Assembly: GCA_964599785.1 (NCBI GenBank)
Contig: CAZRHW010000001.1
Location: 1 to 40,720 of the forward strand
DNA: 40,720 nucleotides
Origin: an uncultured Bacteroides sp.
GTDB lineage: Bacteria > Bacteroidota > Bacteroidia > Bacteroidales > SM23-62
Direction of reading: 5' to 3'
The translations under genes were made by a program, and so were the position numbers. The notes beneath the pieces are model-generated. The model was not told the origin of the DNA and did no database searches. It saw only the letters and a program-made list of their open reading frames with translations. This document shows positions 1,674 to 39,254 of the stretch, piece by piece. Positions within the stretch are counted from its first letter, which is position 1; the number at the start of each line of letters is the position of its first letter.

Positions 1674-1722
1674 ATGGTTAACCTTATTTGCAATATTTTT
1701 CAAAATGGGTATAAAAATTATA

Positions 1723-1780: not shown

Positions 1781-1818
1781 GATTGTAAATCAAATTTTAA
1801 AAATAAAGGGGAATTAAA

Positions 1819-4913: not shown

Positions 4914-5010
4914 TTACGCTTTTCCGAGCGTATCATTAATGGATTCCCCAGGAAAAGGGAGAAAGGTTCGGCCTTAATTATCTATGTTGTCTAAAAAGGA
5001 GGTATGGCCT

Positions 5011-8385: not shown

Positions 8386-8390
8386 TGCCT

Positions 8391-8410
8391 TCGAATTCAA
8401 CAGAATTCGA
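8391..8410 (+). terminator. Weak terminator-like hairpin after the nuclease-helicase gene
   Basis: TCGAATTC-aaca-GAATTCGA begins 6 nt after the stop at 8385. Only a weak T-rich stretch follows (ccctttatttg). Confidence 0.3.
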
Positions 8411-9621: not shown

Positions 9622-9640
9622 TCTAATACGCCACAATCCG

Positions 9641-9667
9641 AGCGCAAAAAGTATTTCTTTTTGCGCT
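9641..9667 (+). repeat. Conserved stem-loop element, copy 3 of 3 (variant with compensatory stem changes)
   Basis: AGCGCAAAAAG-TATTT-CTTTTTGCGCT. The two outer base pairs differ from copies 1 and 2, but pairing is preserved. Confidence 0.65.
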
Positions 9668-10054
9668 ATTACAGATGAGTCCGAATGAAACGGAAACACG
9701 GAAAACTTATGCAAATTTACACCAACACAAAATTATATATTATCCAAGTCAAACTTGTATGGGATCTCTCTTTTGTACTCAGATGGATGGTCTAAAAGAT
9801 ATGATCTTTTTGTTACAATTAAAATAATTGAAACAGTCTAAATTCCCACTAATAATTCTTAATCATCCATTCCATTCCCCTCCCTTCTTTAACCATATAG
9901 ATTTCTTGACATTTCCTAATTATCAATGTATTCGATTGGAATAACAATCATTTAGAAGACTGCAGATAAACAAATTGGACTTGATTGAAGCACTCAAAAC
10001 TGAAACGAAATTGGGGAAAAGGGATAGAAAGGATAAATAGGGGATTAAATTGCT

Positions 10055-22421: not shown

Positions 22422-22745
22422 TCAGATCAGCACCCGTTGGCGTATCGTTTCCCGTATGTTACGGTGACCGTCTATAATGCCGTGAATGATAACTACTTTT
22501 CCGATGATTTGATAGATGATTCGATAATTTTTAATGACAATTTGGCGGCATAACGTTTCGATGAGACCTTCGAGTTCAGATGGAACATCGCCATGCCCGG
22601 TTTTTTTTGACAAGCTATCACAAGCTTGGAAGAGCGTTTTTAATAACTGCTTGGCTGTTTCAGGCCTGCCATCGGCTTTGATGTAACGATAAATTTTTAA
22701 CAGATCTTGCTTTGCCCCGGTTGTAAATTCGACATCGAATTTCAT
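22422..22745 (-). CDS. Type II toxin, RelE/ParE family (ParE-like)
   Basis: 107 aa. Segments AKQDLLKIYRYI ... NYRIIYQIIGKVVIIHGIIDGHRN. 4-nt overlap with the upstream antitoxin gene. Confidence 0.8.
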   Translation of the reverse strand: MKFDVEFTTGAKQDLLKIYRYIKADGRPETAKQLLKTLFQACDSLSKKTGHGDVPSELEGLIETLCRQIVIKNYRIIYQIIGKVVIIHGIIDGHRNIRETIRQRVLI

Positions 22746-23029
22746 TTTTTAGAAAAATCCTTTGAAATCGTGTCTTCAAATTCTTTAAGCAACTTTTTGG
22801 CCGGGATGGTTTTTCCTTCTTCAAAGTCCTTTTGCCCTTGAGCGACCATTTTCAGCAGAGCCAGAGTCTCTTGAATCCGCTCATACTCCGTAATATCCTG
22901 GATGACCGCTTTCGCTTCTCCATGTTGGGTAATGATCATAGTGCCGTGCTGCTCGTTAAGCTCGCGGATCACATCTGCAGCATGCGCCTTGAAATAGCTA
23001 ATCGGTTTTATGGCTTGACTAAACTTCAT
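22742..23029 (-). CDS. Type II antitoxin, Phd/YefM family
   Basis: 95 aa. Segment ISYFKAHAADVIRELNEQHGTMIITQHGEAKAVIQDITEYERIQETLALLK. Confidence 0.8.
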   Translation of the reverse strand: MKFSQAIKPISYFKAHAADVIRELNEQHGTMIITQHGEAKAVIQDITEYERIQETLALLKMVAQGQKDFEEGKTIPAKKLLKEFEDTISKDFSKK

Positions 23030-23441: not shown

Positions 23442-24104
23442 TCAAACTTTTGGCGAGGTCTGCCTCGGCTTGTTGTCCCATTTTTTTTCATAATAAGATG
23501 TTACCAAAAAGTAAGAAATCCAGTGGATAAATAAACTAATTATTGGGATGGCAATAAAATAGCTTGTTTTTGGAAATTGATTGCAAAAGCTTAGAGTAAT
23601 ATATAGCCACAAATAAAAACCATCAATAATAGAAAAAGTCAATACTATGAACAAAAACCCATGAAATCCGTTGAATTTAGGTTTTTTATTATCAGTTGGA
23701 AGAACTTTTATCTTCGATCTGTCAATCTGATTATTTTTTAAATATTTATAAAAATACCACCGGATACCATTTACTTGCCTTGCGTAAAGTAGTGCATCTA
23801 TTTGTAAGCCAGTTATATATAGCATAACAACTAAACCAACAAAGAAAAGAAGAAGTGAAACGATAGATACAACGTTAACGATTAATCCAAGTGTATTTAA
23901 TTCAGATAATTTCGTAAATAAGAATGCCGAGAATGGTGCAGGTAATGCAATAATGAGAAGGTAATATCTAAAAAAAGCAGTTAAAGTTTGTTTAGTGTTG
24001 AAATGAGCCTGAGCTATATTGTCATATTCCTTCAAAAGAAAATCGTTGAATTCCTTTTTTGCAAAAGCTTCTATTGCATGCTCGTTATATGAAGTATTCA
24101 TCAT
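23442..24104 (-). CDS. Multi-pass (about 4 TM) membrane protein of unknown function
   Basis: Soluble N-terminus of about 45 aa, then hydrophobic helices YYLLIIALPAPFSAFLF, VVSIVSLLLFFVGLVVMLYI, FHGFLFIVLTFSIIDGFYLWLYI and YFIAIPIISLFIHWISYFLV. Lies 152 nt downstream of the radical SAM gene. Confidence 0.6.
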   Translation of the reverse strand: MMNTSYNEHAIEAFAKKEFNDFLLKEYDNIAQAHFNTKQTLTAFFRYYLLIIALPAPFSAFLFTKLSELNTLGLIVNVVSIVSLLLFFVGLVVMLYITGLQIDALLYARQVNGIRWYFYKYLKNNQIDRSKIKVLPTDNKKPKFNGFHGFLFIVLTFSIIDGFYLWLYITLSFCNQFPKTSYFIAIPIISLFIHWISYFLVTSYYEKKWDNKPRQTSPKV

Positions 24105-24256: not shown

Positions 24257-25642
24257 CTATCCGTTTCTTCTATTTTCCTTAGTAATACGATCGGCCTCAA
24301 GGTAATGTTCCAAAATTCGACGAAATCGCGGAGATTTAGAACGCTTATAATGAACGTTGTTGACTGGCCCTTCAGAATGAATATTATAAAGCATTTGGCG
24401 TTGGTTTTCAGTCAATGAATGATAAATACGAGACCAATCAGCAGCGCCATTATTTTCGTGGAGCCTTCTATGAATTATATATTCATCAGGCATTAATGCT
24501 ATCTCGATAAACTGTTGCGGGGATTCTCCAAAGGCAGCTTTAAAAAATTCCATCCGGGGCGAAACCATTCCGCGCGTAGCTATAAGAATACATTGGATGC
24601 CTCGAAGGAGTTTCCTGTTCCAATTTTTCCCCACATGGCTTCGGTCCTTTGATGTCAAAGGAATGTACTTCATTGGGAAAGAGTATATTTTTGTTCCTAA
24701 TTCTTCATTAAGCGCACAGTTAATCCGTAGACGTTCATAAAAGTCAGTCGGTGTGTCTGTATAATTGTACAAGACGTAGTTGGATAAATTTAGTAATTCA
24801 TATTTGACCGCTAGCCTAATACGTGATACATAACGGTTTTTCATTGTGATATGGTCGAAAGCGATTCTTAGTGGCCTAATAGCTGTTTCTGAAAGCAATG
24901 CCATCTTCTTTTCTGAGAGTTCGCGCGCATCAACACCTTGATTGAAATCGACACATCTCATCCGCCCCCGGAGCTTGGCACCGCGTTCGAAACCCAATGC
25001 TTTAATATCGTGAATTATCCTTTTAAAAAAACGTGAAGCTAACACATTATTATCCAGAAGTATCAAATCCTGTTTTGCCCCATATACATCTTCTATGCCT
25101 TTGATTTGTCGTTGCATGGGTAAATAATGACGAAAACATGGTTCGATTTTATGAACAGCACAAAATTTGCACCGGTTGGGGCAACCACGCGTGGCATAGG
25201 CAATATAGGCATCCTGAACACCATAAATATAGTCGATTGACTCCAAGATTTGGTAATCAGGAATGAGCGCATCAACAATAGTGGGATTCCCTTTATCCAA
25301 CATACCGGGCTTATCTATAAGCCCAGGTATGATAGTTACTCCTGTTTCCTTGCGAATATCGTCCTCCAATAAGGTCGCCATAACCCCACCTACAATCACA
25401 TTTTCTGATTGAGCTACAGATTTCTTGTAATACAATATGGTCCGGATTGTTTTCGACCAAAAAAATGTAAATAGAGTGCTAATATATATTCTATCCCAGC
25501 TTTGACTTCGAAATGAAGCTCTGCGACCTTTTACAAATTGGACTTCATCGCCTAACAGCTTGTGATAAGACGATATCTTCATAAGCCCAAGAGGTGGGTA
25601 TTTGTTCTGGTATCCTGGTTCAACAAGCAATATTCGTCTCAT
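24257..25642 (-). CDS. Radical SAM enzyme with an N-terminal Rossmann/B12-binding-like domain
   Basis: Cluster motif YATRGCPNRCKFCAV (CxxxCxxC). N-terminus MRRILLVEPGYQNKYPPLGLMKISSY resembles class-B-type radical SAM proteins. Last gene of the coupled operon. Confidence 0.8.
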   Translation of the reverse strand: MRRILLVEPGYQNKYPPLGLMKISSYHKLLGDEVQFVKGRRASFRSQSWDRIYISTLFTFFWSKTIRTILYYKKSVAQSENVIVGGVMATLLEDDIRKETGVTIIPGLIDKPGMLDKGNPTIVDALIPDYQILESIDYIYGVQDAYIAYATRGCPNRCKFCAVHKIEPCFRHYLPMQRQIKGIEDVYGAKQDLILLDNNVLASRFFKRIIHDIKALGFERGAKLRGRMRCVDFNQGVDARELSEKKMALLSETAIRPLRIAFDHITMKNRYVSRIRLAVKYELLNLSNYVLYNYTDTPTDFYERLRINCALNEELGTKIYSFPMKYIPLTSKDRSHVGKNWNRKLLRGIQCILIATRGMVSPRMEFFKAAFGESPQQFIEIALMPDEYIIHRRLHENNGAADWSRIYHSLTENQRQMLYNIHSEGPVNNVHYKRSKSPRFRRILEHYLEADRITKENRRNG

Positions 25643-25657
25643 TTGATTCCCTGCAAT

Positions 25658-26101
25658 TTATTCACCGGCCTTCTCATAAACATATGCGAGCAGCACTTTC
25701 GGTAGTTCCTTTGAGCAACTTGGGTCTAACCGCAAATCGTCTCCGCGAGATAAGGTATATTCACCCAGCACATCTTCCAATAAAATATTCATACCAGCAT
25801 TTGCATATTCCTCGATCGTCGCGATTACAACCCTGTCATCTGCTATAACCGAGAAATCCATATCATTGGTTTCTATCAACATGGCGTAATAGCTTGCATA
25901 TTCTTCCGGAGTAATTGTGCTTGACCAAAAGCGGTCATCACCATTCCGTCCAAGGGGTTTTTTCTTGCCTTTTCGATAACCCAGACACGCACAGAGAAAA
26001 AATATTTCGTGCATATCTTTTGCCACGAAGTTCTTAAAATCGTTATAAATGGTACGATAGCGCCTATCTGTTCGAACACGAATATCGCCAGCAAGTTTCA
26101 T
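25658..26101 (-). CDS. Hypothetical 147-aa protein (Dnd-neighbourhood-like small protein; not DndE by eye)
   Basis: Starts 2 nt after the DndD-like stop. GGAGG lies 10 nt upstream. No motif recognised. Confidence 0.6.
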   Translation of the reverse strand: MKLAGDIRVRTDRRYRTIYNDFKNFVAKDMHEIFFLCACLGYRKGKKKPLGRNGDDRFWSSTITPEEYASYYAMLIETNDMDFSVIADDRVVIATIEEYANAGMNILLEDVLGEYTLSRGDDLRLDPSCSKELPKVLLAYVYEKAGE

Positions 26102-26103
26102 GT

Positions 26104-28146
26104 TTATTCTACCTCCGCTTCATCTCTCAATAGCCCGTTTGCTTGCTTTACATCCACAGCCTCAATCTTTGTGGTTCCTGCTCCTGCCCCTTTTAGTGCA
26201 TAGAACTTGCTCCACTGATTTGTGCCGCGCAAAATCTGTGCTTCAAAGCGGCCGAATTCAGTATCCGTCGCAAGAAGCACCCATTGTGTGCACCATATAG
26301 GCACATGCGTCAGAAGATTTCGACGGTGCTCGTGCGAAAGGCGCCCAAACGGCGTATCCATGAATAAAGGCATTTCAAGGATATCGGTACCGGCTGCGGC
26401 TCCCGCAAGTGCCGCTATAAATGCAATCGACATAATTTGTCTTTGCCCTGCTGAAATATTGGCTAAAAAGGGTTTCTGCCAGCGATCATATACTTGAATG
26501 GTGTAATCCGAATCAACAACAACGTCTCGAAGGGTCTGTTTTCCTTCACCATCAAGAAGTTCACGAAAATATTTTGTTGCGCTTGCGCTGATAAGATCTC
26601 TAGTTTCCCCTGTAAACTCTTCATGGATACTTCTTAGTGCATCACTAGTGGCAGCTGCAAGATCAGCGCGTTTGGACATCTCATCACGAATGCCTTGCTC
26701 TCTTTCTATTTCTTTACGTTGTTGTTGAAGGCGTTCGTGTTCATCTTTTAGAACGATAAGCTCTTCCTGAGCGCGTGTTCGTTCTTCCTCCAGTTTGAAT
26801 ATTTTGCGTTCTATTTGCTGCCGATGTTTTTCTAATTTGGCAGCATCAGCGCGTTCGGAAGACCCGATTTTTTGCCGTAAATCTTCTAGCTTTCGAAGTG
26901 TCACCTGGAGATCGTTCTTCACGATAGCGAATTTCTGAAGAACTGTCTCTGTGGCTACCCCGATATCTTCATAATGGCTTCGGACTCCGCTAAGATACCT
27001 CCATAGGTTGAGCATAGAGTCCTCGGTCAGTATATCCCTTGTTCGATCGCGCCAGAGCAAGATGCTTCGATGTTCATCTGTCCCAGGCTTGATTGGTGTT
27101 CCACAAATGCAATGGCCTTCTGATATTAGACGATCAATCAAATCGCGTCGTATTTCCGATGGAATTTCATGTTTTTGTTTTCGCTTATCTATGTTTTTAA
27201 ATACCTTTTCGGCAGTTTTCCTGACAAGGAGAAGCGCAGTTTTGCCAGTCCGGTTTTTCATGTCTATCAGCAGATCCTCAACCTGAGCCTCAAGGTCTCT
27301 CTCTTTTTTTTCAAGGTCCATCCTTGCCGAAAGCAGATCCCGGATATCTCGTATCTTTTCCAGCTCAACATCGACTTGCTTTTTTTCCTGCGCAGCGCGA
27401 TCCAGCTCATCGTCAATGACTGTTGTCCTGTCATCTAGTTCGTTCGTCCTTTCATCATTCTCTCGCAACTGTTTTATCACACGAGCATGCTCACCGGTTG
27501 CACGTGTCTCTACCTCAGAATCGAGATACTTTTTTAGGCGTTTTGTTGCTCGCATAGCAGTTTCAAGGACATCGATGTCAAGGAGCTTCCGAACACCCAC
27601 GGACACTTCCTTACGCTGGTCCGAGCTTGCACGTGTGAGCCTTTCAATCTTCTCCCCATCAAATAAAAAATATTCTCTCAACCCACGGTCAAGGATGCCT
27701 CCAACAACATCGGCGATTTCATTGGGATCTCTAATGGTTGTTGCGTTTCCGTCCTCGTTCATCGTTACCAATCGAACGGACTTGTCCTCTTGAAGAACCT
27801 TTCCATAGTCTATTATTCCGAGTATGTTTCGCTCAATTTGATATGTCTTACCAAAATGTCTGAATTCCAAATAGACACTTGCTTCAACAGGTTTCTTGTC
27901 TCCAATCCTGGCTTCCATCTCCGGATAATTTACCAAGTATAACTCGCGATCATCGACTTGTGCATCCTGGGTTAATCGTTTCTCTCCATAAAGGCAGAAT
28001 AATAGAGCACGGTAGAGCCCAGTTTTGCCTCTGCCATTTTCCCCAAAGACAACAGTAACGTTGCCGGTTGGCCCCCTCGCAAATTCAATTTCCTGGGTTC
28101 CTCGGAATTGCCGGAAGTTGGTAAGTTTCATTTTATGGAGAATCAT
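26104..28146 (-). CDS. DndD-like SMC/ABC-type ATPase with a long coiled-coil insert
   Basis: N-terminus KLTNFRQFRGTQEIEF...VTVVFGENGRGKTGLYRALLFCLYG (Walker A). About 350 aa of charged coiled-coil. C-terminus ISAGQRQIMSIAF (signature) and LFMDTPFGRLSHEHRRNL (DndD-type DTPxGRL..HR). Confidence 0.8.
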   Translation of the reverse strand: MILHKMKLTNFRQFRGTQEIEFARGPTGNVTVVFGENGRGKTGLYRALLFCLYGEKRLTQDAQVDDRELYLVNYPEMEARIGDKKPVEASVYLEFRHFGKTYQIERNILGIIDYGKVLQEDKSVRLVTMNEDGNATTIRDPNEIADVVGGILDRGLREYFLFDGEKIERLTRASSDQRKEVSVGVRKLLDIDVLETAMRATKRLKKYLDSEVETRATGEHARVIKQLRENDERTNELDDRTTVIDDELDRAAQEKKQVDVELEKIRDIRDLLSARMDLEKKERDLEAQVEDLLIDMKNRTGKTALLLVRKTAEKVFKNIDKRKQKHEIPSEIRRDLIDRLISEGHCICGTPIKPGTDEHRSILLWRDRTRDILTEDSMLNLWRYLSGVRSHYEDIGVATETVLQKFAIVKNDLQVTLRKLEDLRQKIGSSERADAAKLEKHRQQIERKIFKLEEERTRAQEELIVLKDEHERLQQQRKEIEREQGIRDEMSKRADLAAATSDALRSIHEEFTGETRDLISASATKYFRELLDGEGKQTLRDVVVDSDYTIQVYDRWQKPFLANISAGQRQIMSIAFIAALAGAAAGTDILEMPLFMDTPFGRLSHEHRRNLLTHVPIWCTQWVLLATDTEFGRFEAQILRGTNQWSKFYALKGAGAGTTKIEAVDVKQANGLLRDEAEVE

Positions 28147-28316
28147 CGAGAAACCTCTTTCTCTTTAATGATTTGCCGTACAACTCCCTTAAGTTGCTCA
28201 GTAACTGACATTTCCGGCATCGATTCAGCAAATTCAAGGGCACGGGCTGCTAACTCCTGAACATCTGATGGGTAATTTTTGAGCTTATCTCTAATAAGTT
28301 GATGTGTTTTGACCAT
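28143..28316 (-). CDS. Untracked 57-aa ORF, translationally coupled on both sides
   Basis: MVKTHQLIRDKLKNYPSDVQELAARALEFAESMPEMSVTEQLKGVVRQIIKEKEVSR. AGGAG lies 6 nt upstream of ATG 28316, which is 2 nt after the helicase stop. Its TGA overlaps the DndD-like ATG (ATGA). Confidence 0.6.
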   Translation of the reverse strand: MVKTHQLIRDKLKNYPSDVQELAARALEFAESMPEMSVTEQLKGVVRQIIKEKEVSR

Positions 28317-28318
28317 AC

Positions 28319-30457
28319 TTAGCTCCTATCCTTAATCTCAACCGATTCCATAACTTCGTGATAAATATCCCAAGGCCTGCTATCAAAAAGATGCAACATC
28401 TGAAATGCGTTTACAATTTCCCATATAACGGCTCGAGCCTCGAATTCATTTTCAGCACTGGCGGCGAATTCCGCGAATCGAGGCATCTCTCGACGAAGCA
28501 TGCCAAGATCTGAATCCCTGCGCAAATGCGCATAATTAATATCGGGCACAACGACAAAATCAAATACATTCGCTCGAATTTTCCCATCGCATTTTCTTAA
28601 GATTCGTCCTCGGCGCTGAACAAACTCTTTTGGGTTAGTCGTGCTGGCAAGAAAAAATGCAGTCTGTGTTGAGGGGATGTCAACCCCTTCGTCAAGGCAA
28701 TGGATCGCGATCAGCACCTGTATATCTCCGATAGCAAACTGCCTCAATACTGACTCGCGATCATTCATTGAAACGGTGTGCACAAATTCGTGGCAACGCA
28801 GCCCCAAAGCCGCCACTGCTTTAAGCACTTCTCTATGCTTGCCAGGCGCGCAATAGATGAGTACATGCTTGAGCTCAGTTTCAACTTCTTTGCATTCGAC
28901 TATTAATTTTTGGAGTTCCCTAATCAATAACGGAATCTTTCTCTCAGCCGCTGAAATTATTTGAGCTCTTTGTAAAAGGAGTCTCTTCAAGCGTTCCTCG
29001 GCTTCTGCATCATGCTCTATTTCTCTACCGGCAAGCGAGGCAATCTTCCTTGATAGATTCTCATAATTCTCGCTTTCATGGTCTGTAAGCAATGTCAAAA
29101 TCGGAAGATAGCGATAGGGTGTCAGATACGGCCCAATGGCTTGATCCAAAGGATATTCAAAACAGATATCCGTGAAGTAGTCCAAAAGCGTTTGTGTACC
29201 TTCCTGGTCATACCACCGACGTGGAGTAGCTGACAGACCTAAACGCATAGCGGCTTGCGGTAGCAGAGCATCACGCAGGCGTGGTGCACCCAAACTGTGG
29301 ACTTCGTCGGCAATTAATATGGTGCTTTCAGATGGAAGCCCTTGTATCGCTTTAGTGAATCTTTTTGTCGCTGCGGTCTGGTGAACAGCAAGAATGCAAA
29401 TACTTGGCAACACGCCTAAGCGATAGTCCTGGACCTTGGAACGTACATCAGTTGACCACTGATTATGATTGCCGCTACATAAAATAGGAAAAAAACCAAA
29501 TTTTTCACAATGCTGCCGCCATTGTTCCAGTAAGTGAAGATAAGGTACGAAAACTAAGACGGCCACATGCTTTAAAGCATCCCTCCTCTCTGCGGCTGCA
29601 GCAAGTGCCGTAAACGTTTTTCCTGTCCCTGTGGCCATTTCAAAAATGCCTTGGAAATTCTGTTGCTTCCAACTGTCTATTGCTTCTGTCTGATAGGGCC
29701 GCAATGCAAAAACAGGCTCACACATCTCTATTGAAGGTTGTGCATTATCGCTTTTACGTTTTTTCCCCGCATAAACCCATGGCCGCTCAACTGTTCTTAA
29801 ACGCACGATCTCTTGCCTTATTGCCTCAGGCAGTAGGAGCACCTGAAATTGCTCGTTTCCGTCGCACCAAAGTTTTACCAACCGTTTATAGTGCTGTTTA
29901 ACATAAGGACGCTGCCCCTCCTCCCATGATTTAAAAACTGAGAATGCCTCTCCATTGAGAGAGCCTTGCGCCGAATCATTAAATGAGCCGTGGATCGCGA
30001 CCATTTCCTCAATTTCGTCAATAAAGACACCAACTTTGTCATGATAGTCACCTGCTGAATTAAAATCCCTTGTTATTGCAAAACGGAATTCAATGACACC
30101 ATCAGCGACCATCCATGCAAGAGCATTTAACGTGTCTTTTGAGACTGCCTGAGCAAGGTCTACAATTTGTTTGCGCAGTATTTCGCGTAATACACTATCG
30201 CGTTTCGCTCTATTGCCAAATTGCAGGGCTTCCCAGTCTGCCATCTGCATTATGGGAGAGGTAACAATATGAGCTCTTCCCCCATTACTGACAAGTTTCA
30301 CAACTCCTTTGCATGCTGTTTTCAACCAACCCGATGTAAAAAAACCTACACCCCGCCAATATTCATGCGACTCTGCAAGCAAGGGTGCGATGAGTTCCTG
30401 CACAAGATCATACTCAGCACTATCATAGACAGGATGTAGCTCAAGGTCTCTAAGCAT
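28319..30457 (-). CDS. PLD-family (HKD) nuclease domain fused to an SF2 DEAD/DEAH helicase (type III restriction Res-like)
   Basis: HKD-type motif YHDKVGVFIDEIEEMVAIHGSFNDS. Helicase motifs RPYQTEAI...EMATGTGKTF (I), LIADEVHSLG (II), GLSATP (III), QRRGRILRK (VI). Confidence 0.85.
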   Translation of the reverse strand: MLRDLELHPVYDSAEYDLVQELIAPLLAESHEYWRGVGFFTSGWLKTACKGVVKLVSNGGRAHIVTSPIMQMADWEALQFGNRAKRDSVLREILRKQIVDLAQAVSKDTLNALAWMVADGVIEFRFAITRDFNSAGDYHDKVGVFIDEIEEMVAIHGSFNDSAQGSLNGEAFSVFKSWEEGQRPYVKQHYKRLVKLWCDGNEQFQVLLLPEAIRQEIVRLRTVERPWVYAGKKRKSDNAQPSIEMCEPVFALRPYQTEAIDSWKQQNFQGIFEMATGTGKTFTALAAAAERRDALKHVAVLVFVPYLHLLEQWRQHCEKFGFFPILCSGNHNQWSTDVRSKVQDYRLGVLPSICILAVHQTAATKRFTKAIQGLPSESTILIADEVHSLGAPRLRDALLPQAAMRLGLSATPRRWYDQEGTQTLLDYFTDICFEYPLDQAIGPYLTPYRYLPILTLLTDHESENYENLSRKIASLAGREIEHDAEAEERLKRLLLQRAQIISAAERKIPLLIRELQKLIVECKEVETELKHVLIYCAPGKHREVLKAVAALGLRCHEFVHTVSMNDRESVLRQFAIGDIQVLIAIHCLDEGVDIPSTQTAFFLASTTNPKEFVQRRGRILRKCDGKIRANVFDFVVVPDINYAHLRRDSDLGMLRREMPRFAEFAASAENEFEARAVIWEIVNAFQMLHLFDSRPWDIYHEVMESVEIKDRS

Positions 30458-33224
30458 CGACTATCAACTCCTTTAGAATAATTTCTCTATCTTTTATCGC
30501 AACAATCTGACCAGTACCGAGCATGACTGGTGTAAGACTTTTTTTAATGACCCCATCCTTTACAAGCGAATTTTCAAATGCCGCAAGATTTGCCGACCCG
30601 TTCCAATACCGAACTAGAAGCGTGCCGATAAGAGCTTCAAAACTTTGAATTCCGTGCTCATTGTCCCTCGGTAAAAAGGCTTCCCGGGAGTTTCCAAAAA
30701 TCAGGAAACGCTTCCCTTTTGCTAATAAATCCGCAATCATGGTGTGTGACCAATACAACCCAGACGGTAGCTTTGGCATCGTCGATGATTCTAACAGATT
30801 GGAAATGCGTCCAAAATACCTACCAGCCCGTGCCGCGCTTTGATATATTTTGAGTGCGAGGCGTTCAAGTTCCTGCTGCTTGGATTCATCCCACTCAAGA
30901 GTCTGTTTATGGATTACGCATCCAGGATGATATATACAAATATTGCCATCGTGACTGACTGAATAAACTTGCTGTTCCTTATAACCGAGCTTTTCAACGA
31001 AGCGCTCCTCGAGAACCTCATAAGGACACGGCTTTTCAAAATCACGAATAAAATCGAGAATGCGTCTTTTTATCGAAAGTTGACTCTTTTCTTGACTATC
31101 ATGGTTTCTTGCCAAACTTGGATAGCTCCGAATGGAAAAAAAATCCTCGGTGAAATGTTGCATTACGGAATATAGCATTACCGGACCATCAATGCCCAAG
31201 GATTTGCAAGTTACCAGCTTGTCGTGAAAAATCCTGTCAACTGAACAGTGTTCTTCTTTAGTAAGCACATCTTGAATATGCCTAATCAATGGCATTACAA
31301 ATATTGGATCAAGTTCAAAATTGTCGAGATGAAGGTAACCCCAGTCAGCTGTTCGAATCACGTTGGATACTCGCTGGGTGAGGTTGTAGAGCTGATAATC
31401 CTTAAGGTAAATCCTCTCAAGACAAAACTCTCTGACATCCTTTTGTGAAACAGGCCCACCTGCATCGCGTACAAAGTTTTCGAGAGCAATCGGTACAGGA
31501 ATTCGCTCTGTGAATCCTTTTTTTAGATAGATAAAAGGCAACCTTGGATAAGCAAGCTCAGGATGTGTTGATTGTCTCAAACATGTGTAAAGAGCAATTT
31601 CAGAGGGGAATGCAGCTTGTTGGCATCGGGTCGAAAAGTGTGTGAATGCGCCATAGGCTGAGACGAACGGCACATCTTCTTGGAGCACTTTAAGGAGCCA
31701 TGTTTCCACGTCATGTATTAGGCTTAGAGGGATGACAATTCTATCTTTATGCACGAACGTTCCGCGGTCCCAAAGCAGTGCATTTTTACTGCGATCTAAT
31801 GCCGCATGGATATTTCGTTCCAAAATACCAGGACGCCATTTTCTCGCATGTTCTGTTATCTCACTAAAGTGCGCAGGCCTGCCTATCTGCTTAAGCACTG
31901 TATCTAACATTTGAGTAACACTGCTAAATCGAATTCTCCATAAACCCACCGAGTAGATACGATCTTTATGAGCCCTGAGTCGTCTCCTGCAATTTTTTAC
32001 CACGGCGTCCAACAAGGCATCAGATATATTTTCTAAGTGCAGTTTTTCGGGTACTATCATAGCTCTTTTGATTAGAGCATTCTTCAGGTGTTCACGTTCG
32101 ACACTCCAAAGGTCATCGGAGTGTCGTTCATCTGCGACGGCTATAGCAACATCCACAACCATTCCAACCAGGTAGCGTATCAGCGACTGGGAATCAACAT
32201 GACTGATAATCCCGTCCTCTTGGAGTAGAAGGCTGGCATCTTTCCAAACTTGGAGTTCGGAGAAGAATGAAATTAATTCCGTAGCATAAATGAGTTGATC
32301 ACCGCCCTTTCCTTTACATAGCAGGGTCTTGGTCAATTCATCTAATGCAACCATCCCACCGGTCTTTTGTACAAAGGCCACAGCTGCATTAATCAGAGGA
32401 CGCAATCTTTTTTGTTGAAATTGTGTAGCTGCTTTTTTCCCCAACGACCTATCAAGCTGACGTACTCGTTCCCTGGTCAGCCCACCGATTCTTTCACCAA
32501 TGCGATCTAAAGTCATTGGGGCGCAACCCATCATCCCCTTGCGTAACATGAACGCATTAGCTTGCTTCTTAGACCGGCTAAGTTCGTGGATCCACTCAAC
32601 AAGCCACAAAGCTGGATTTTCAACATCAGCGAAGATACCTTTCTGGTTGGAATTACTTGTTTGGTCAGTAGAAATGCCCCTGAGGCACGGCGCAGAAAGT
32701 AGCTTTAATGGATTAAAATCAAGGCAATTGTCTGAAATCTCAAAAGCGAATTCCTTTATCCCCGCCTGAATTCTAAGTATTTCATTTGCCGTTTTTCGTC
32801 CGCAGTTCCGACAATTGAGTAGCTGTTCTTTATCCAGCTTCATATATGACGTTAAACAAGTTACGTCCAGATCATATAATACGTGTGCGCCTCTGACGCT
32901 CAGGATACCCAAAATAGCGTCAAAAATTTCAGTAGGAGCATTATCGAAATCCAATGCAGCTCTCGGTGCCTGAGAGACTTCATGCTTACATTGAGGCCGA
33001 AGCTTTAATTGAAGGCTCTCAATTTCAGCAATCGTCTTTTTACCGCAACTCCATGCCTGCATGAGATCATCACGTGTCAAGTTTAACAAAGCATCCAAAT
33101 CTTTAACATCAAGATCTGCCAAGACCCGCTTAGCCCTGACGGATATCTTCTTAGTTAAGCTGTCAAAATCATGGGTCGCCGGACCGATTGCCCTATTAGC
33201 TCTGCAAGCAGATGATTCTTGCAT
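30450..33224 (-). CDS. 924-aa multi-HTH DNA-binding protein: two RNAP alpha-CTD-like HhH repeats, a sigma-70 region-4-like HTH and an uncharacterised C-terminal two-thirds
   Basis: HhH repeats VRAKRVLADLDVKDLDALLNLTRDDLMQAWSCGKKTIAEIESL and VRGAHVLYDLDVTCLTSYMKLDKEQLLNCRNCGRKTANEILRI. Sigma4-like segment MTLDRIGERIGGLTRERVRQLDRSLGKKA. wHTH-like segment GRPAHFSEITEHARKW...ALLWDRGTFVHKD. 8-nt overlap with the helicase start. Confidence 0.65.
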   Translation of the reverse strand: MQESSACRANRAIGPATHDFDSLTKKISVRAKRVLADLDVKDLDALLNLTRDDLMQAWSCGKKTIAEIESLQLKLRPQCKHEVSQAPRAALDFDNAPTEIFDAILGILSVRGAHVLYDLDVTCLTSYMKLDKEQLLNCRNCGRKTANEILRIQAGIKEFAFEISDNCLDFNPLKLLSAPCLRGISTDQTSNSNQKGIFADVENPALWLVEWIHELSRSKKQANAFMLRKGMMGCAPMTLDRIGERIGGLTRERVRQLDRSLGKKAATQFQQKRLRPLINAAVAFVQKTGGMVALDELTKTLLCKGKGGDQLIYATELISFFSELQVWKDASLLLQEDGIISHVDSQSLIRYLVGMVVDVAIAVADERHSDDLWSVEREHLKNALIKRAMIVPEKLHLENISDALLDAVVKNCRRRLRAHKDRIYSVGLWRIRFSSVTQMLDTVLKQIGRPAHFSEITEHARKWRPGILERNIHAALDRSKNALLWDRGTFVHKDRIVIPLSLIHDVETWLLKVLQEDVPFVSAYGAFTHFSTRCQQAAFPSEIALYTCLRQSTHPELAYPRLPFIYLKKGFTERIPVPIALENFVRDAGGPVSQKDVREFCLERIYLKDYQLYNLTQRVSNVIRTADWGYLHLDNFELDPIFVMPLIRHIQDVLTKEEHCSVDRIFHDKLVTCKSLGIDGPVMLYSVMQHFTEDFFSIRSYPSLARNHDSQEKSQLSIKRRILDFIRDFEKPCPYEVLEERFVEKLGYKEQQVYSVSHDGNICIYHPGCVIHKQTLEWDESKQQELERLALKIYQSAARAGRYFGRISNLLESSTMPKLPSGLYWSHTMIADLLAKGKRFLIFGNSREAFLPRDNEHGIQSFEALIGTLLVRYWNGSANLAAFENSLVKDGVIKKSLTPVMLGTGQIVAIKDREIILKELIVDA

Positions 33225-33279
33225 TAGCGACCTCTTGAATCAAATGATTTAATTGCGTAATTTCGTTCCATCGCTATGC

Positions 33280-33468
33280 CTATTTCCCGAAATTTTCATG
33301 ACGCTTCAGCCACTCGTCAATGGATTCTCTATGGAAACGCAGGTGACGACCCACTTTCTGGAAGGGAACTTTACCTTCTCTTACCAGCTTGTAGAGGGTT
33401 GATTTTGGGATTTTCAGATAAATGGATAGCTCGTCAATGGTTAAGACGTTCTCGGGTTGATTTTCCAT
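33280..33468 (-). CDS. Excisionase/MerR-type HTH_17 DNA-binding protein (62 aa)
   Basis: LTIDELSIYLKIPKSTLYKLVREGKVPFQKVGRHLRFHRESIDEWL. Lies 55 nt upstream of the 924-aa gene on the same strand. Confidence 0.75.
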   Translation of the reverse strand: MENQPENVLTIDELSIYLKIPKSTLYKLVREGKVPFQKVGRHLRFHRESIDEWLKRHENFGK

Positions 33469-33520
33469 GAGAAATACCTTTGTTCGGGAATATTAGAAAC
33501 GTTGAAAAGATATCGTTTAT

Positions 33521-33549
33521 AAATTACAGTTAGTGATAGTTCTTGTCAA
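33521..33549 (-). promoter_or_regulatory. Putative promoter of the minus-strand operon
   Basis: On the minus strand: TTGACA (33549-33544), 17-nt spacer, TAATTT (33526-33521). Lies about 50 nt upstream of ATG 33468. Confidence 0.45.
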
Positions 33550-33894
33550 TTGATTTATGTTAATAAAACCAAGATTGGAATTTGCTATGTCCGAAAATGC
33601 TTGTTGACGTCAGATTATAAGTTTCCGTGGGTGTAAGCTTTTATCCTCCATGGTTCTTTCACAAATAGCCTTTTGTTTTCACCACCTGCGAATTCAATTT
33701 GAAGTGATTTTTATAAATACGTTCTATTAAATAGAGCTATACTTAACCTTAAGTGTAAATTATGAGTTTTCGTGTCCTTGTACGATAGGAAAAGTCAAAT
33801 TTATGGTCTAATCGGAACCTTATGCTAACTATCACCATCATCCTGAAATTCCATGTGATTTCTATCAAAGTGAATAAATATTTTTTTTAATCTG

Positions 33895-34095
33895 GTGATT
33901 CGTCTGAGTTTACATAGCATGTACAAGACCCGTGAACTGGAGGGTGAATCAGTTGTCACATTTTTTGCACCAACTGGCGCCGACGGGAAGATTTATCAGG
34001 TGGAAGCCTTCAACCTCTATCCCATAATTTTTATCGGATACCGATTTAATTTCAAACGTGGTAATCACAGACGTCAATATTCCATCAATTTCTGA
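33895..34095 (+). pseudogene. Internal fragment of a RhuM-family gene
   Basis: LSLHSMYKTRELEGESVVTFFAPTGADGKIYQVEAFNLYPIIFIGYRFNFKRG resembles the RhuM core (..ISLHI.NIF.EGEL.ENSV....TTAADGK.Y....YNLDAIISVGYRVNS.RG). Truncated at both ends. The 3' end is overlapped by the 223-aa gene. Confidence 0.6.
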
Positions 34096-34745
34096 GCAAG
34101 GCGATGGAGCTCCGGATTGGCAAGGGCGGCGACTTTCTTTTTTACGGTGCGGGAAAAATATTCTTTTTCGGTTTTAGTTAGCAATTCGCCTTTCAATTTC
34201 TTCTGGAACAATTCCTTTTGTTTCGGCGAAAATAATTGAGACAGGGCGTATTCAAGTGATAGCTCCTCATGCTTATTTTTTAGCTGTCTTGACTTTTCAG
34301 CATCTTTTTCAAAATAATTGTTGAACATCTGTTTCAGCCTGGATGGGTCAAGGCGCCGCTTGCCGAGACGGACCTCATTTCCGTGCGCTAAAAGATGTTT
34401 CAATTCTTTCATGCGGGCTGACTCTTTCTGTGATAAGGTTTTTTTTAATTGGTTCGACCAGGCAAACGACAGATGGTAATATTGATATAGGGCCAATGAT
34501 AATAACAGTAAAGACCTAAAATCTTCTAATTCCCTTTTTTTTGTGAAATGCGTTTGGACCTGTTCGTAATCAAAATGATAGTCCCTGGCAGCATTGGCCA
34601 GCAAGACGGCAAATCCCTCCCATAGTCGTGTGTCGTTGCTTTTAACGACCTCGGCCAAGGTTTTATTGGCGTCAACTTCCGGCAGGGCCTCCATCAAAGG
34701 AAATCCCAGTTGATTTAAGTTGTCCATTAATTTTTGGTCAACCAT
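34074..34745 (-). CDS. Hypothetical 223-aa partner of the nucleotidyltransferase (possible HEPN-like protein)
   Basis: 8-nt overlap with the upstream NTase-like gene. Helical sequence with a single R-x5-H (RMKELKH). Weak evidence. Confidence 0.5.
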   Translation of the reverse strand: MVDQKLMDNLNQLGFPLMEALPEVDANKTLAEVVKSNDTRLWEGFAVLLANAARDYHFDYEQVQTHFTKKRELEDFRSLLLLSLALYQYYHLSFAWSNQLKKTLSQKESARMKELKHLLAHGNEVRLGKRRLDPSRLKQMFNNYFEKDAEKSRQLKNKHEELSLEYALSQLFSPKQKELFQKKLKGELLTKTEKEYFSRTVKKKVAALANPELHRLAQKLMEY

Positions 34746-35325
34746 AAGGCGATTCTTTTCTAACTTGATTTAAAAAATACTCAAGATTTACGATAATCCG
34801 ATTTTCGGAGATGTCGTAACTTGCAAGCTCTTTGACATGCTCTTCAACCCGCGGAAGATCGATGCTTTCTTTACGTGATCTCATCAACACCAGGCAATCT
34901 TCAAAATCAACCGCTGTTCCACGAAAAAGTTTGCTGGCGATCAGATCATAGGGATTTAAAATACCGATATAAAGATGAGAAAACTCCTTAAATAGCGTAT
35001 GGTTTCCCTTTTCCAGGGGAGATTCCAATAAGTCTGTCGTATGAATACGTTGCCCCATAAACAAATCAAACACAAACAGGTTTCCACTTTTGTGCCAACC
35101 GGACCCTGTTTTCTGTTTATAGCCTAAATCCTTCAAAATTTTGATCAAATACCGGTACTCCTGTTCAATCGGGACTATAAAATCAACATCCTTAGTCGAT
35201 GGCTTGATATCCATCAAAGTCAAAGCGGTTCCACCGCAGGCAACCAGATGGACTTTACGTTTTAAAAACGCATTCCATTGTCCCAACAATTCTGTTAATG
35301 TCTGTTTGTTTAGCCTATATTCCAT
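34738..35325 (-). CDS. Minimal nucleotidyltransferase-fold protein (MNT/AbiEii/DUF6036-like)
   Basis: HLVACGGTALTLMDIKPSTKDVDFIV (GG..A...x...S.DvDf NTase signature). 195 aa. Confidence 0.6.
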   Translation of the reverse strand: MEYRLNKQTLTELLGQWNAFLKRKVHLVACGGTALTLMDIKPSTKDVDFIVPIEQEYRYLIKILKDLGYKQKTGSGWHKSGNLFVFDLFMGQRIHTTDLLESPLEKGNHTLFKEFSHLYIGILNPYDLIASKLFRGTAVDFEDCLVLMRSRKESIDLPRVEEHVKELASYDISENRIIVNLEYFLNQVRKESPYG

Positions 35326-36625: not shown

Positions 36626-37423
36626 TTATGCCTTTCCCCTAGCATTATCCCGACGAATGAGCGCTCTCAGTTCCTCTTCAATCTCCTTCGGGTTCCCAGA
36701 CCATTTCACGTATCTCTTGTCTCTTTGAATTGCCAACTCATTAACCATTTTAAGGATTTCCTCGGATGAACCAACCATGAGCGGAAGAACCCTTGTCATT
36801 CCCGAATCGATCTCTTGGCTCAGAGCGGCGTTCATCTCTTTCGTGGCCCAAGTTTTTCGGAGAAGAGAAGGCGAAACGACTACAATCACGAATCGAGAGC
36901 ATCGCAATCCTTCGTTGAGCTTTCCAACAATGCTGTCTCCCCATAGAATTTCGCCGCGATCATACCAGCATCTAATTCCAACCGAATCAAGATGTTTGTA
37001 CAATGGTTCGGCCACACTGACCTTTTCTTCACTCGCATGACAGATGAAGACATCCCAACGTTCGGGAGATACATGCTTCAGGTCAACAACAACGAAGCGG
37101 ATATAGGGACCAATCTCGGTCAAGACCGTTGCAATTTGACGGAACGCACGTTGGGCTTGGGCTTGGCTAGTTAGGATGCGAAAACTCTCATATTCTTGAA
37201 GTGGTACGTGGGCGAACAAGATCTGGAATTCGTCATTGAAGTGATTCGTTCCCTCACATATACGAAATGGGGCACGTTCGAGATACTCAACGGCAAGGTC
37301 TTCTCCTCGGGCGCGCAGGATCTGACGAGCATTCAGCATAAGGGATTCGTGCTCTTGTTCTTCAAAGGCATCCTCATGGATCTCGAAATCGCCAGCTCCG
37401 CTTCCTTGATATAGAGTAATCAA
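36626..37423 (-). CDS. TIR-domain protein (C-terminal TIR; about 125-aa unknown N-terminal domain)
   Basis: WDVFICHASEEKVSVAEPLYKHLDSVGIRCWYDRGEILWGDSIVGKLNEGLRCSRFVIVVVSPSLLRKTWATKEMNAAL, with the conserved W...E catalytic-Glu region present. Confidence 0.85.
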   Translation of the reverse strand: MITLYQGSGAGDFEIHEDAFEEQEHESLMLNARQILRARGEDLAVEYLERAPFRICEGTNHFNDEFQILFAHVPLQEYESFRILTSQAQAQRAFRQIATVLTEIGPYIRFVVVDLKHVSPERWDVFICHASEEKVSVAEPLYKHLDSVGIRCWYDRGEILWGDSIVGKLNEGLRCSRFVIVVVSPSLLRKTWATKEMNAALSQEIDSGMTRVLPLMVGSSEEILKMVNELAIQRDKRYVKWSGNPKEIEEELRALIRRDNARGKA

Positions 37424-38291: not shown

Positions 38292-39254
38292 TCATTCGAG
38301 AACCTGGAGAATTTTTTTAACAAGTTCCGGCACCCCATCTTCTGATCGCCCTGCCAATCTATCAGCTAGAGATGGTGAATGTCGTAGTAATGTTTCACGA
38401 TCTAACTCATGCCATATTGGCAGAATCGCTTTATCGCCATTTGCGGTTTCTTTCGCAACTAAACCGTCCAATTCTCTTTGTGGCCACTCTTTGGAAAGGA
38501 AATGAGGGCTTAAAATGACAACACCGTACTTGCACTTGCTGAGCCCATCATCTATTTTTCTCCTTAAACTATCACCAAGTTTTATGACGGCTTCATCAAA
38601 CCAGACTGAGATGCCGCTATCAATCAAGGCATTATAAAGAGGGCGCGCTATGGCATCTTTATCCTCTGATGCGTGAGAAATAAAAATATCATATATCATA
38701 TTATCATTATGGTGTTCCGTGGGATGTGATTCTTTTTCTAATAGCATCCAACCTTCAGCTGTAATCTCGAATTTAAAAACGAATGAATCATTAAGATCTG
38801 AAGGTCCATCAGTTCTACGGACTAAATTCCTCTCGATAAGTAATCGGAGAATGTAAATAAATTCAGCCTCATCAGACGCCCAAGCGAGAGGAAAGTCGAT
38901 TTTGGGGATAATTTCCAGTGCTTTGCCGTCAAATTCTGCCGATCTGCCAAAAGACCGTAGCAGGAGTAGCTGCTTATCTATAACACGGTATGTTGGCAGT
39001 GCAGGCTCAATGTCTTTAAGTGTACTCGAGTTGATTTCAGGGATATTATCACCCGAACCTTGTTGCTGTCGTATCCATGTTGAAAGCTTGGAACTCAGTC
39101 CTTTTCTTTCAAGCATTGCCACAGCAGTCCTAGTGATGGTGTACTTTCCACAGCGAGCACATTCAAGTGAGAAACGTTCACCATAATCCCAGATACGCAC
39201 ATTTTGTCTCTCAAGCTTGCATACTGGGCAAGACTCTATAATATTATTATTCAT
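38292..39254 (-). CDS. Zinc-ribbon, linker and TIR-domain protein
   Basis: N-terminal CPVCK...CARCGK (CxxC x19 CxxC). C-terminal YDIFISHASEDKDAIARPLYNALIDSGISVWFDEAVIKLGDSLRRKIDDGLSKCKYGVVILSPHFLSKEWPQRELDGL. Confidence 0.85.
   Translation of the reverse strand: MNNNIIESCPVCKLERQNVRIWDYGERFSLECARCGKYTITRTAVAMLERKGLSSKLSTWIRQQQGSGDNIPEINSSTLKDIEPALPTYRVIDKQLLLLRSFGRSAEFDGKALEIIPKIDFPLAWASDEAEFIYILRLLIERNLVRRTDGPSDLNDSFVFKFEITAEGWMLLEKESHPTEHHNDNMIYDIFISHASEDKDAIARPLYNALIDSGISVWFDEAVIKLGDSLRRKIDDGLSKCKYGVVILSPHFLSKEWPQRELDGLVAKETANGDKAILPIWHELDRETLLRHSPSLADRLAGRSEDGVPELVKKILQVLE

Follow-up and report, generated by a model that had tools for sequence, protein, structure and literature searches.

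The 40.7-kb stretch of genomic DNA analysed here (contig CAZRHW010000001.1 of an uncultured Bacteroides sp.; referred to as the window) carries on its minus strand an operon of seven co-directional genes, of which four belong to the named PbeABCD defence system and are flanked by the genes for a 924-amino-acid (aa) protein, given the short name P924, and a 461-aa radical S-adenosylmethionine (SAM) enzyme. We propose that the locus is a PbeABCD-type defence operon whose subtype is conserved and seems not to have been described before; in it, the radical SAM enzyme and P924 would stand in for the usual self-marking enzymes. We give this reading a probability of about 0.55. The evidence consists of the domain identities of the products, their intact catalytic motifs, the strict co-conservation of the genes, and the absence of other modification genes. 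Four alternatives, each with some support and each fitting the context data less well than this proposal, are considered where the relevant evidence appears. An earlier note on the same DNA (the original prediction) had described an undescribed restriction/modification-type defence locus. The PbeABCD core and its location within a defence island bear out the assignment to defence. The novelty claim stands for the radical SAM enzyme, P924 and a small helix-turn-helix (HTH) protein, which lie outside any described system found, but not for the remaining four genes, which constitute a named system that had gone unrecognised; a named system therefore accounts for the core and not for the whole gene set. 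What is apparently undescribed is the pair of extra genes and their fixed association with the core. Coordinates are based on the list of open reading frames (ORFs) in the window and their translations. The seven genes are:

33280-33468, minus strand: HTH gene, 62 aa, Pfam HTH_17, excisionase/MerR-type
30450-33224, minus strand: P924 gene, 924 aa, RNA polymerase alpha C-terminal domain (alpha-CTD), sigma region 4 and winged helices
28319-30457, minus strand: PbeA gene, 712 aa, HKD nuclease and superfamily 2 (SF2) helicase
28143-28316, minus strand: gene at the PbeB position, 57 aa (SP57), between PbeA and PbeC
26104-28146, minus strand: PbeC gene, 680 aa, PADLOC PbeC, CxC-hook ABC ATPase
25658-26101, minus strand: PbeD gene, 147 aa, dnd_assoc_4 family, predicted DndE cognate
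24257-25642, minus strand: radical SAM gene, 461 aa, identified by the motif CPNRCKFC, an AlphaFold2 model and Foldseek

An ORF check of the window recovered all seven genes at the coordinates originally given, with the tight junctions claimed. The 924-aa and 712-aa genes overlap by 8 nt (30450-30457) and the 57-aa and 680-aa genes by 4 nt (28143-28146), while gaps of 2 nt separate the 712-aa gene from the 57-aa gene and the 680-aa gene from the 147-aa gene (26102-26103), and a gap of 15 nt separates the 147-aa gene from the 461-aa gene (25643-25657). The HTH gene lies upstream of the 924-aa gene, at a distance of 55 nt.

The PbeABCD core and its conserved partners

The product of the 712-aa gene matches the PADLOC model of PbeA over its full length (E value 3e-216) and contains the Pfam domains ResIII and Helicase_C; its score against TIGR04095 (dnd_restrict_1) is 461 bits, below the cut-off of 600. 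The N-terminal nuclease domain, of the PLD family, includes the HKD motif YHDKVGVFID...HGSFNDS (nt 29972-30046), and MATGTGKT, DEVH and QRRGRILR represent helicase motifs I, II and VI. Both the HKD motif (HxK..GSxN) and the helicase motifs are kept in an alignment of 13 homologues, and PbeA is predicted to be the restriction effector. The 680-aa protein, which had been taken for a DndD-like ATPase, is PbeC: it matches the PADLOC PbeC model (E value 3.8e-164) and reaches only 143 bits against TIGR03185 (DndD), for which the cut-off is 245.85. Its primary structure contains the Walker A motif GENGRGKTG, the signature ISAGQRQ, the sequence DTPFGRL..HR and a D-loop motif, as well as a CIC hook in the middle of the coiled coil that was absent from the motif list of the original prediction. 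The hook residues, C346-I-C348, are invariant in 16 homologues; Walker A, signature and DTPFGRL are likewise conserved. A CxC zinc hook of this kind defines a sister clade of DndD (PMC10853773). The HKD, SF2, ABC ATPase and radical SAM motifs that had been quoted earlier are all present in the translations and conserved in homologues.

The 147-aa protein matches TIGR04062 (dnd_assoc_4; E value 9e-5) and PADLOC PbeD (E value 1.2e-3) weakly, and a sequence search of solved structures in the PDB gave no match at E<=10. Its family is more informative: 10 of 13 members match TIGR04062 (best E value 2.2e-15), and homologues carry PF27807 (DNA_S_mod_dnd_assoc_4). PbeD has been equated with the DndE cognate (PMC10853773). 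On these family matches the 147-aa protein is PbeD, the predicted DndE cognate and DNA-binding partner of the ATPase, and the earlier statement that DndE is absent has to be dropped. The 57-aa protein has no hidden Markov model (HMM) match in Pfam, PADLOC or NCBIfam. It is conserved in every related operon (43-82% identity) and looks helical rather than disordered, and distant relatives retain the pattern LIxxKLxxYPxDV..LA..A.E. By its position it is the putative PbeB, the "small protein" of CxC systems. Because the PbeA and PbeC profile matches are strong, the family supports PbeD, and the 57-aa gene occupies the PbeB position, the four genes are identified as PbeABCD.

PbeABCD was named by Xiong et al. 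2019 (PMC6459918), who defined it as phosphorothioate-dependent and reported an antiviral phenotype; in their experimentally defined system, DndCDEA-PbeABCD, phosphorothioation genes are adjacent. PbeABCD corresponds to the CxC ABC-ATPase-DndE-anchored system of Aravind's group (Krishnan et al. 2020; PMC10853773). The core of that system comprises an HKD-SF2 nuclease-helicase, a small protein, the CxC ATPase and the DndE cognate (PMC10853773). The window operon has the same four genes in the same order, with strong HMM matches that extend over the full length in the case of PbeA. It differs in lacking dndCDEA, cytosine methylase and MTaX1 genes, and in having a radical SAM gene fixed downstream of PbeD and the P924 gene fixed upstream of PbeA. 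The partners given for CxC systems in PMC10853773, with its summary of the 2020 work, are the HKD-SF2 protein, the small protein, cytosine methylases and MTaX1; neither a radical SAM enzyme nor P924 is among those given there. CxC systems swap phosphorothioation for cytosine methylases (PMC10853773), and an adjacent Dnd or methylase module is not required, as surveys accept "solitary" Pbe loci (PMC6459918, PMC10853773): 165 of the 553 PbeAC pairs surveyed have no recognised modification partner ("solitary"), and a link to modifications of other kinds has been suggested for them (PMC6459918).

The operon also resembles the Dnd module (DndA/B/C/D/E) in having a DndD-family ATPase, a DndE-like DNA binder and an iron-sulfur enzyme, and in sister contexts the radical SAM enzyme is paired with DndB-family (DGQHR) proteins. 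The iron-sulfur enzyme of the window is, however, a radical SAM barrel and not a PP-loop/PAPS-reductase DndC, and no cysteine desulfurase accompanies it. In addition to the DndD score below its cut-off, no PAPS_reduct or aminotransferase class V protein is encoded in the window, and the locus is not classed as a Dnd modification system. A Pfam scan of ORFs of at least 90 aa found no DndA, DndC or methyltransferase in the window, as had been claimed.

Co-conservation was assessed in 92 loci by tblastn and ORF clustering, for which a metagenome scan with an alignment proved far richer than a scan of genome contigs with a single protein (5 loci). The order P924-PbeA-SP-PbeC-PbeD-radical SAM recurs in about 17 distinct loci from several phyla, including a Chromatiaceae metagenome-assembled genome (MAG), the chromosome of a Myxococcota MAG, a Desulfobacteraceae MAG and many metagenome contigs. 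The neighbourhood check thus agrees with the co-conservation that had been expected of the radical SAM and P924 genes with the nuclease and ATPase genes, and since the same order is found in many unrelated contigs it is beyond chance. Among the 92 loci, wherever the identity of the radical SAM enzyme is 56% or more along most of the protein, its gene lies directly downstream of PbeC-PbeD. All 8 intact loci with sufficient upstream sequence also have PbeA and a P924 homologue (identity down to 26-30%); in one locus the P924 homologue is 30% identical and has no alpha-CTDs. Identity to the window is highest for the radical SAM enzyme (60-82%), followed by PbeD and PbeA, then PbeC, and finally P924 (26-55%). 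The radical SAM enzyme is therefore the slowest and P924 the fastest evolving component, a difference to be expected if the former is a catalytic core and the latter serves in recognition or sensing. The HTH gene is not constant: a homologous one lies upstream in L001 and L016 (L numbers denote individual loci), an Xre-type one in L003, and none is evident upstream of the operon in L018, L020 and L024. The conserved unit is accordingly P924-PbeABCD-radical SAM.

The flanks of the related loci are unrelated to each other and contain housekeeping or other defence genes, with no methylase or Dnd gene in those examined. These observations bear on an improbable alternative, according to which a "solitary" PbeABCD reads a phosphorothioate or other mark written elsewhere in the genome, with the radical SAM enzyme and P924 in accessory or regulatory roles. 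The published dependence of PbeABCD on phosphorothioation would favour it (PMC6459918), and as 40.7 kb of the genome is visible, distant dnd genes are possible. The radical SAM enzyme, P924 and PbeABCD travel, however, as a unit among unrelated genomes and flanks, which a Dnd partner acting in trans would not do; dnd genes occur within 10 kb in none of the sampled loci, and the radical SAM family also pairs with DndB-like proteins where DndC and DndA are lacking.

Three related operons are decayed, one of them the Kuenenia copy described below. In L013 (5269-8309) fragments of P924 and PbeC are joined to each other and PbeA is lost, while PbeD and the radical SAM gene are kept; retention of the radical SAM gene after loss of PbeA fits a harmless modification arm, as our proposal would have it. 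In L032 a 299-aa ORF stands in place of PbeB, PbeC and PbeD.

The radical SAM enzyme and its relatives

The 461-aa protein contains the radical SAM motif CPNRCKFC (nt 25160-25183). By sequence it is assigned with difficulty: the Pfam Radical_SAM score is 19.8 bits, below the cut-off of 29.5; NCBIfam and Pfam return weak BchE and generic radical SAM matches and nothing more, with no Pfam B12-binding match and no NCBIfam equivalog; and there is no match in the PDB (E<=1) or to the PADLOC models (E<=0.01). In the AlphaFold2 model (mean predicted local distance difference test score, pLDDT, 89.9) an N-terminal Rossmann domain that is B12-binding-like is followed by a radical SAM barrel and a helical C-terminal domain. 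Foldseek matches comprise MgmA (E value 4e-11), TsrM, OxsB and AprD4, which together span 4e-11 to 8e-7, and MtaB/MiaB/RimO. The invariant CxxxCxxC motif and the barrel, seen in both the model and the Foldseek matches, fit membership of the radical SAM superfamily. The model points to the fold class of cobalamin-type radical SAM methylases, since the Class B enzymes MgmA, TsrM and OxsB share with it the Rossmann domain and the CxxxCxxC barrel. AprD4, a dehydratase without cobalamin, has the same Rossmann and barrel fold. Identity to MgmA, TsrM, OxsB and AprD4 is only 12-16%, with no family match by sequence, and none of these four is known to act on DNA or to be encoded in a defence operon.

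The structural matches to MiaB, RimO and MtaB raised sulfur insertion as a candidate reaction. The N-terminal Rossmann domain has no cysteines, however, and C154, C158 and C161 are the only cysteines invariant throughout the family (74 members from all contexts). The cysteine triad for an auxiliary, sulfur-donating second [4Fe-4S] cluster is thus lacking, so that a methylthiotransferase of this type is excluded. A viperin-like enzyme was also rejected, with no HMM support and no viperin among the 50 Foldseek matches listed.

A substrate other than DNA was considered, namely a protein or peptide of the system itself, such as the 57-aa PbeB or PbeD, which the radical SAM enzyme would modify in a maturation resembling that of ribosomally synthesised and post-translationally modified peptides (RiPPs). 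B12-domain radical SAM enzymes often act on peptides or proteins; MgmA, the top structural match, methylates a protein glutamine; the operon includes a conserved 57-aa protein; and HXS is a reported precedent for a defence effector matured by a radical SAM enzyme (PMC13128918). We regard this as improbable. Small proteins of the PbeB type occur in all CxC systems, mostly without a listed radical SAM partner (PMC10853773), and no SPASM or RiPP-recognition domain was found in the enzyme, whose three cluster cysteines are the only ones conserved. Moreover, tblastn with the window proteins detected no homologue of SP57, PbeC or PbeD in the DndB/GHKL, ParB/SNF2 and NurA-HerA contexts in which the same enzyme family occurs.

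These contexts are diverse. At 50% identity the family comprises 281, 889 and 1772 representatives at E<=1e-30, 1e-10 and 1e-3, respectively (exhaustive search), and at 90% identity at least 8000 clusters (word-indexed search). Relatives that do not exceed 55% identity are found in at least four further layouts, for none of which PADLOC has a system name. The first is PbeA-PbeC-PbeD-(DndB)-radical SAM-GHKL ATPase. The second consists of a DndB-family protein (DGQHR; Pfam DndB, E value 1.8e-11), the radical SAM enzyme and a GHKL ATPase (HATPase_c_3), as in Rhizobium pR132505 (L011), Novosphingobium pNL1 (L012), L029-L031, L037, L044, L048 and L063. In the third, a cassette encoding a ParB-N protein, a 139-aa protein, an SNF2 helicase (ZorD/DpdE-like) and a second ParB-N protein lies directly upstream of (DndB)-radical SAM-(GHKL), in L023, L026, L033-L035, L047, L059, L060, L068, L097, L098, L101 and L131. 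The fourth, with a radical SAM enzyme of 540-740 aa, has the order NurA-like, HerA-like, GHKL, radical SAM and is found in Bacteroidota, Victivallales and many viral or proviral contigs (L008-L010, L053, L058, L067, L071, L074, L079-L092, L109-L113 and L132). A GHKL ATPase accompanies the radical SAM enzyme in 46 of the 92 loci, never together with P924. As separate observations, the DndB-radical SAM-GHKL cluster often lies beside a PIN-like protein and an ATPase, and the annotated HerA and NurA-like genes of Marinitoga camini virus 1 have a gene for a short radical SAM protein next to them.

Short orphan homologues (about 305 aa) are encoded by phages, namely Phocaeicola phage PV4-TP1 (L133), similar Bacteroides phages, and Clostridium phage phiCT453B; in PV4-TP1 the gene lies between those for a PAPS reductase and DNA methyltransferases. 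The orphans may have a phage DNA-modification or anti-restriction function. Every sampled relative is found in a conflict-system context, and, with an equivalog and a PDB match also missing, the enzyme is judged not to belong to a housekeeping family. A constant enzyme, its Dnd-type DNA-handling proteins, the swapped nuclease and motor modules, the phage orphans and the retained gene of L013 together form the pattern expected of a modification enzyme of the restriction-modification (R-M) type. The 461-aa protein is accordingly predicted to be a modification enzyme, and to place it in the slot of the modification chemistry, as the original prediction had done, is a reasonable hypothesis.

The same enzyme could instead belong to the effector or sensing arm, producing a toxic or signalling nucleotide or, once activated, damaging or altering invading DNA that PbeABCD recognises, with abortive infection as the outcome. 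Viperins are radical SAM defence effectors. Ophion (bioRxiv 10.1101/2025.09.30.679545) and HXS (PMC13128918) are reported to have radical SAM effectors or maturases, a suicide-type action has also been considered for CxC systems (PMC10853773), and the gene downstream of the radical SAM gene encodes a membrane protein whose family has long forms with an NT5C-like nucleotidase domain (see below). Ophion, HXS and the viperins share with the window a radical SAM enzyme within an anti-phage cluster; in Ophion and HXS the partners are unrelated (PHP and PRTase; an HxS-repeat effector) and the enzymes belong to other radical SAM subfamilies. The structural neighbours of the 461-aa protein are B12-type methylases, AprD4 and methylthiotransferases, not viperin, and no PADLOC model matches it at the threshold given above. 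In every context a nuclease and motor effector is already present, the phage orphans lie among DNA-modification genes, and L013 keeps the enzyme after its nuclease has been lost. An effector role is, on balance, unlikely, and yet the strongest of the four alternatives.

P924 and a proposed mode of action

P924 is composed of two parts:

32430-33167, minus strand: N-terminal module, residues ~20-265, two alpha-CTD-like helix-hairpin-helix domains and a sigma-70 region 4 HTH
30453-32423, minus strand: C-terminal part, residues ~268-924, about nine tandem winged-helix domains

The two alpha-CTD stretches and the sigma region 4 noted in the original prediction were recovered by three approaches. 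Pfam RNA_pol_A_CTD matches two stretches (E value 1.4e-10), NCBIfam gives RpoS/RpoD region 4 matches, and a profile of 40 sequences detects sigma region 4 structures in the PDB (E value 5e-14). The sigma region 4 HTH contains LTRERVRQL; across the 40 aligned sequences its LTRERVRQ helix always has R251, R253 and Q256, with E252 and R255 conserved to at least 90%. The HTH thus retains the residues that in sigma-70 correspond to those contacting the -35 element. In the AlphaFold2 model (mean pLDDT 86), residues 268-924 form repeated helix-helix-helix-strand-strand units, and the Foldseek matches are winged-helix arrays, including UFL1, the C-terminus of SelB, and subunits of RNA polymerase III and TFIIIC. 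The C-terminal part has no Pfam or PDB sequence match, and the winged-helix units have mostly diverged too far for detection by sequence, only the fifth and seventh (w5 and w7) matching each other (E=0.001). No catalytic domain was detected by Pfam, the AlphaFold2 model or Foldseek.

Among named defence systems (PADLOC, NCBIfam, Pfam), only the alpha-CTD, sigma region 4 and a weak PglW match were found for P924. Residues 108-304 align to positions 812-987 of PglW (PADLOC, E value 7.8e-6), a region described as an alpha-CTD followed by winged helices (PMC12839542). The C-terminal half of type 2 BREX PglW, like BrxA, thus resembles P924 in placing an alpha-CTD-like domain before winged helices in a defence protein. 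P924 differs from PglW in lacking the Ser/Thr kinase, the NERD nuclease and the inactive STAND domain, in having sigma region 4 and a winged-helix array far longer than the three units of PglW, and in being encoded with Pbe rather than BREX genes. As the match is confined to the alpha-CTD and the first winged-helix region, and NF033442 scores 14.5 bits against a cut-off of 990, PglW was rejected as an identity. P924 and the GHKL ATPase are mutually exclusive in the data yet unrelated: a BLAST comparison of P924 with the GHKL, HerA-like, NurA-like, DndB, ParB and c10 clusters gave nothing, so that P924 was rejected as a homologous substitute for the ATPase.

Relatives of P924 occur in other self/non-self systems as well. 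In L093 (4089-9795) such a relative forms a 1122-aa fusion with a SAM-dependent methyltransferase; a 775-aa protein combining PAPS reductase and 4Fe-4S ferredoxin comes next, and an AbiE pair lies beside them, an arrangement that resembles BREX type 4 or DndC logic. In L094 (2399-14296; Paenibacillus) a complete type I R-M operon (hsdM, hsdS, hsdR) is immediately followed by the gene for a 1431-aa relative with sigma region 4.

In the mode of action that we propose for the window operon, the ABC ATPase dimer PbeC, with its zinc hook, and the DndE-like PbeD would load on and scan DNA, as the family literature suggests, and would present sites to the radical SAM enzyme. The latter would then attach a mark covalently to host DNA through 5'-deoxyadenosyl-radical chemistry, perhaps as a cobalamin-dependent C-methylation. 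P924, with its alpha-CTD, sigma region 4 and winged helices, would recognise DNA or act as a sensor. By analogy with their families, the HKD nuclease and SF2 translocase PbeA would attack unmarked DNA and PbeB would serve as a small regulator, while the upstream HTH protein would control expression of the operon. We infer the modification, its chemistry and the defence phenotype from the domain content and gene context.

Several points weigh against this proposal. The role of modification enzyme is drawn wholly from gene context, and cobalamin binding by the 461-aa enzyme is not readable from its sequence, its structural neighbour AprD4 being cobalamin-free. We know of no radical SAM enzyme that writes an epigenetic self-mark on DNA. 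The phage context lends weak support because the homologues are distant (26-32% identity over about half of the protein). In Kuenenia (L002, 14-2423) the operon has no P924 gene, a transposase gene of an insertion sequence (IS) element lies upstream, and PbeA is shortened at its 5' end; lacking P924 behind an IS element, this copy may be dead, or P924 may be dispensable. The restriction step is itself debated, as, according to PMC6459918, the haloarchaeal PbeABCD system does not degrade viral DNA. Finally, full-text literature searches turned up no account of this gene set and no paper connecting radical SAM enzymes with the Pbe, CxC, DndB or GHKL systems, but the 2020 ABC-ATPase survey (PMC7544218) may hold a mention of such a partner.

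If the radical SAM enzyme does replace the usual self-marking enzymes, it would be a concrete candidate for the self/non-self basis of a conserved group among the "solitary" PbeAC pairs, which make up about a third of those known and have no known basis of this kind (PMC6459918), and it would offer a handle on the PbeABCD mechanism, in which the role of the HKD nuclease is disputed. A mark of this kind on DNA would be a new epigenetic self-marking chemistry beside methylation, phosphorothioation and 7-deazaguanine, and the same family would explain other unnamed clusters, e.g., DndB-radical SAM-GHKL on rhizobial and sphingomonad plasmids and NurA-HerA-GHKL-radical SAM in Bacteroidota. New modification-dependent enzymes could also become tools.

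A wider reading can be put forward tentatively, and is less probable than the proposal made for the window alone. The 461-aa enzyme would found a large family of DNA-modifying radical SAM enzymes (at least 281 clusters at 50% identity) that is shared by at least five restriction back-ends, i.e., PbeABCD with P924, PbeACD-GHKL, DndB-GHKL, ParB-SNF2 and NurA-HerA-GHKL, and of which phages would carry copies in order to escape. The new self-mark might, for example, be a base or sugar methylated at carbon in a cobalamin-dependent reaction, or a phosphorothioate-like change of the backbone, and the alpha-CTD and sigma region 4 of P924 might serve as decoys that sense phage hijackers of RNA polymerase.

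Operon control and the surrounding island

The 62-aa HTH protein matches Pfam HTH_17 (E value 3.6e-16) and TIGR01764 (E value 2.8e-17) and is likely a transcriptional regulator. Against MADS MAD1 it scores 58 bits, below the NCBIfam cut-off of 80 bits, with a PADLOC mad1 E value of 3.2e-10. Upstream of its gene is the following site:

33521-33549, minus strand: promoter-like site, TTGACA (33549-33544), 17-nt spacer and TAATTT (33526-33521)

The site exists where the original prediction had placed it. Read directly from the sequence, the -35 element matches the consensus at 6 of 6 positions and the -10 element at only 3 of 6, for which reason the site is missing from the list of the consensus scan. 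Promoter-like sites are not enriched in the region, where that scan found 22 against 25.5 expected, and a promoter/terminator scan found no terminator between the operon genes. A non-coding, A+T-rich stretch of about 600 nt lies upstream of the HTH gene (33469-34073) and gave nothing in Rfam at gathering thresholds; Rfam and tRNA scans found no RNA genes in the window.

The window is a defence island, which supports a defence role of the operon. On the plus strand, Tiamat TmtA is present as an 1847-aa Sacsin/GHKL-like protein with NOV_C (10055-15598; full-length PADLOC match, E value 3.5e-267), together with a 1133-aa RNase_H_2-like protein with an SF1 helicase (AAA_11/AAA_12; 4984-8385), the helicase of which resembles Mokosh MkoA (E value 1.9e-49). 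Between the helicase gene and TmtA, 1.67 kb (8386-10054; 34-41% G+C) contains no ORF of at least 90 aa and no Rfam or tRNA match. Positions 762-4460 encode a WYL-domain regulator (minus strand), a 162-aa ORF, a JAB peptidase (weak BilC) and a ThiF/E1-like protein (weak BilD, E1-E2), and look like a Bil-like ubiquitin-type conjugation defence cluster. On the minus strand, a ParE/Phd toxin-antitoxin pair (22422-23029) lies about 1.2 kb downstream of the operon, past the gene for the 220-aa protein described below; a DUF6036 nucleotidyltransferase and its 223-aa partner (34074-35325) lie just upstream; and two TIR-domain proteins (36626-37423 and 38292-39254) resemble ThsB and the PADLOC candidate PDC-S66, with unannotated ORFs between and around them. 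An ankyrin protein is also encoded in the window.

This setting argues against the least probable of the alternatives, a mobile module for DNA repair or maintenance rather than defence, in which radical SAM repair of lesions would be combined with an SMC-like ATPase and a helicase-nuclease. Repair also employs Rad50/SMC-like ATPases and helicase-nucleases, and DNA is the substrate of one radical SAM enzyme, spore photoproduct lyase. That enzyme is, however, absent among the structural matches listed, and in addition to the dense island, the distribution of the operon is patchy and horizontally spread with some copies decayed. The antiviral phenotype published for the PbeABCD core (PMC6459918) makes this very improbable explanation harder still to sustain.

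One further gene follows the operon on the same strand:

23442-24104, minus strand: gene for a hydrophobic protein of 220 aa, separated from the radical SAM gene upstream by 152 nt; four hydrophobic stretches recognised by eye

It is possibly an accessory eighth gene of the operon. Long forms of its family (434-477 aa) have a C-terminal HAD/NT5C-like domain (DIDGVLN; Pfam NT5C, E value 6e-4), and genes for homologues with 28-40% identity adjoin that of the radical SAM enzyme in 8 other distinct loci among the 92, representing four context types.

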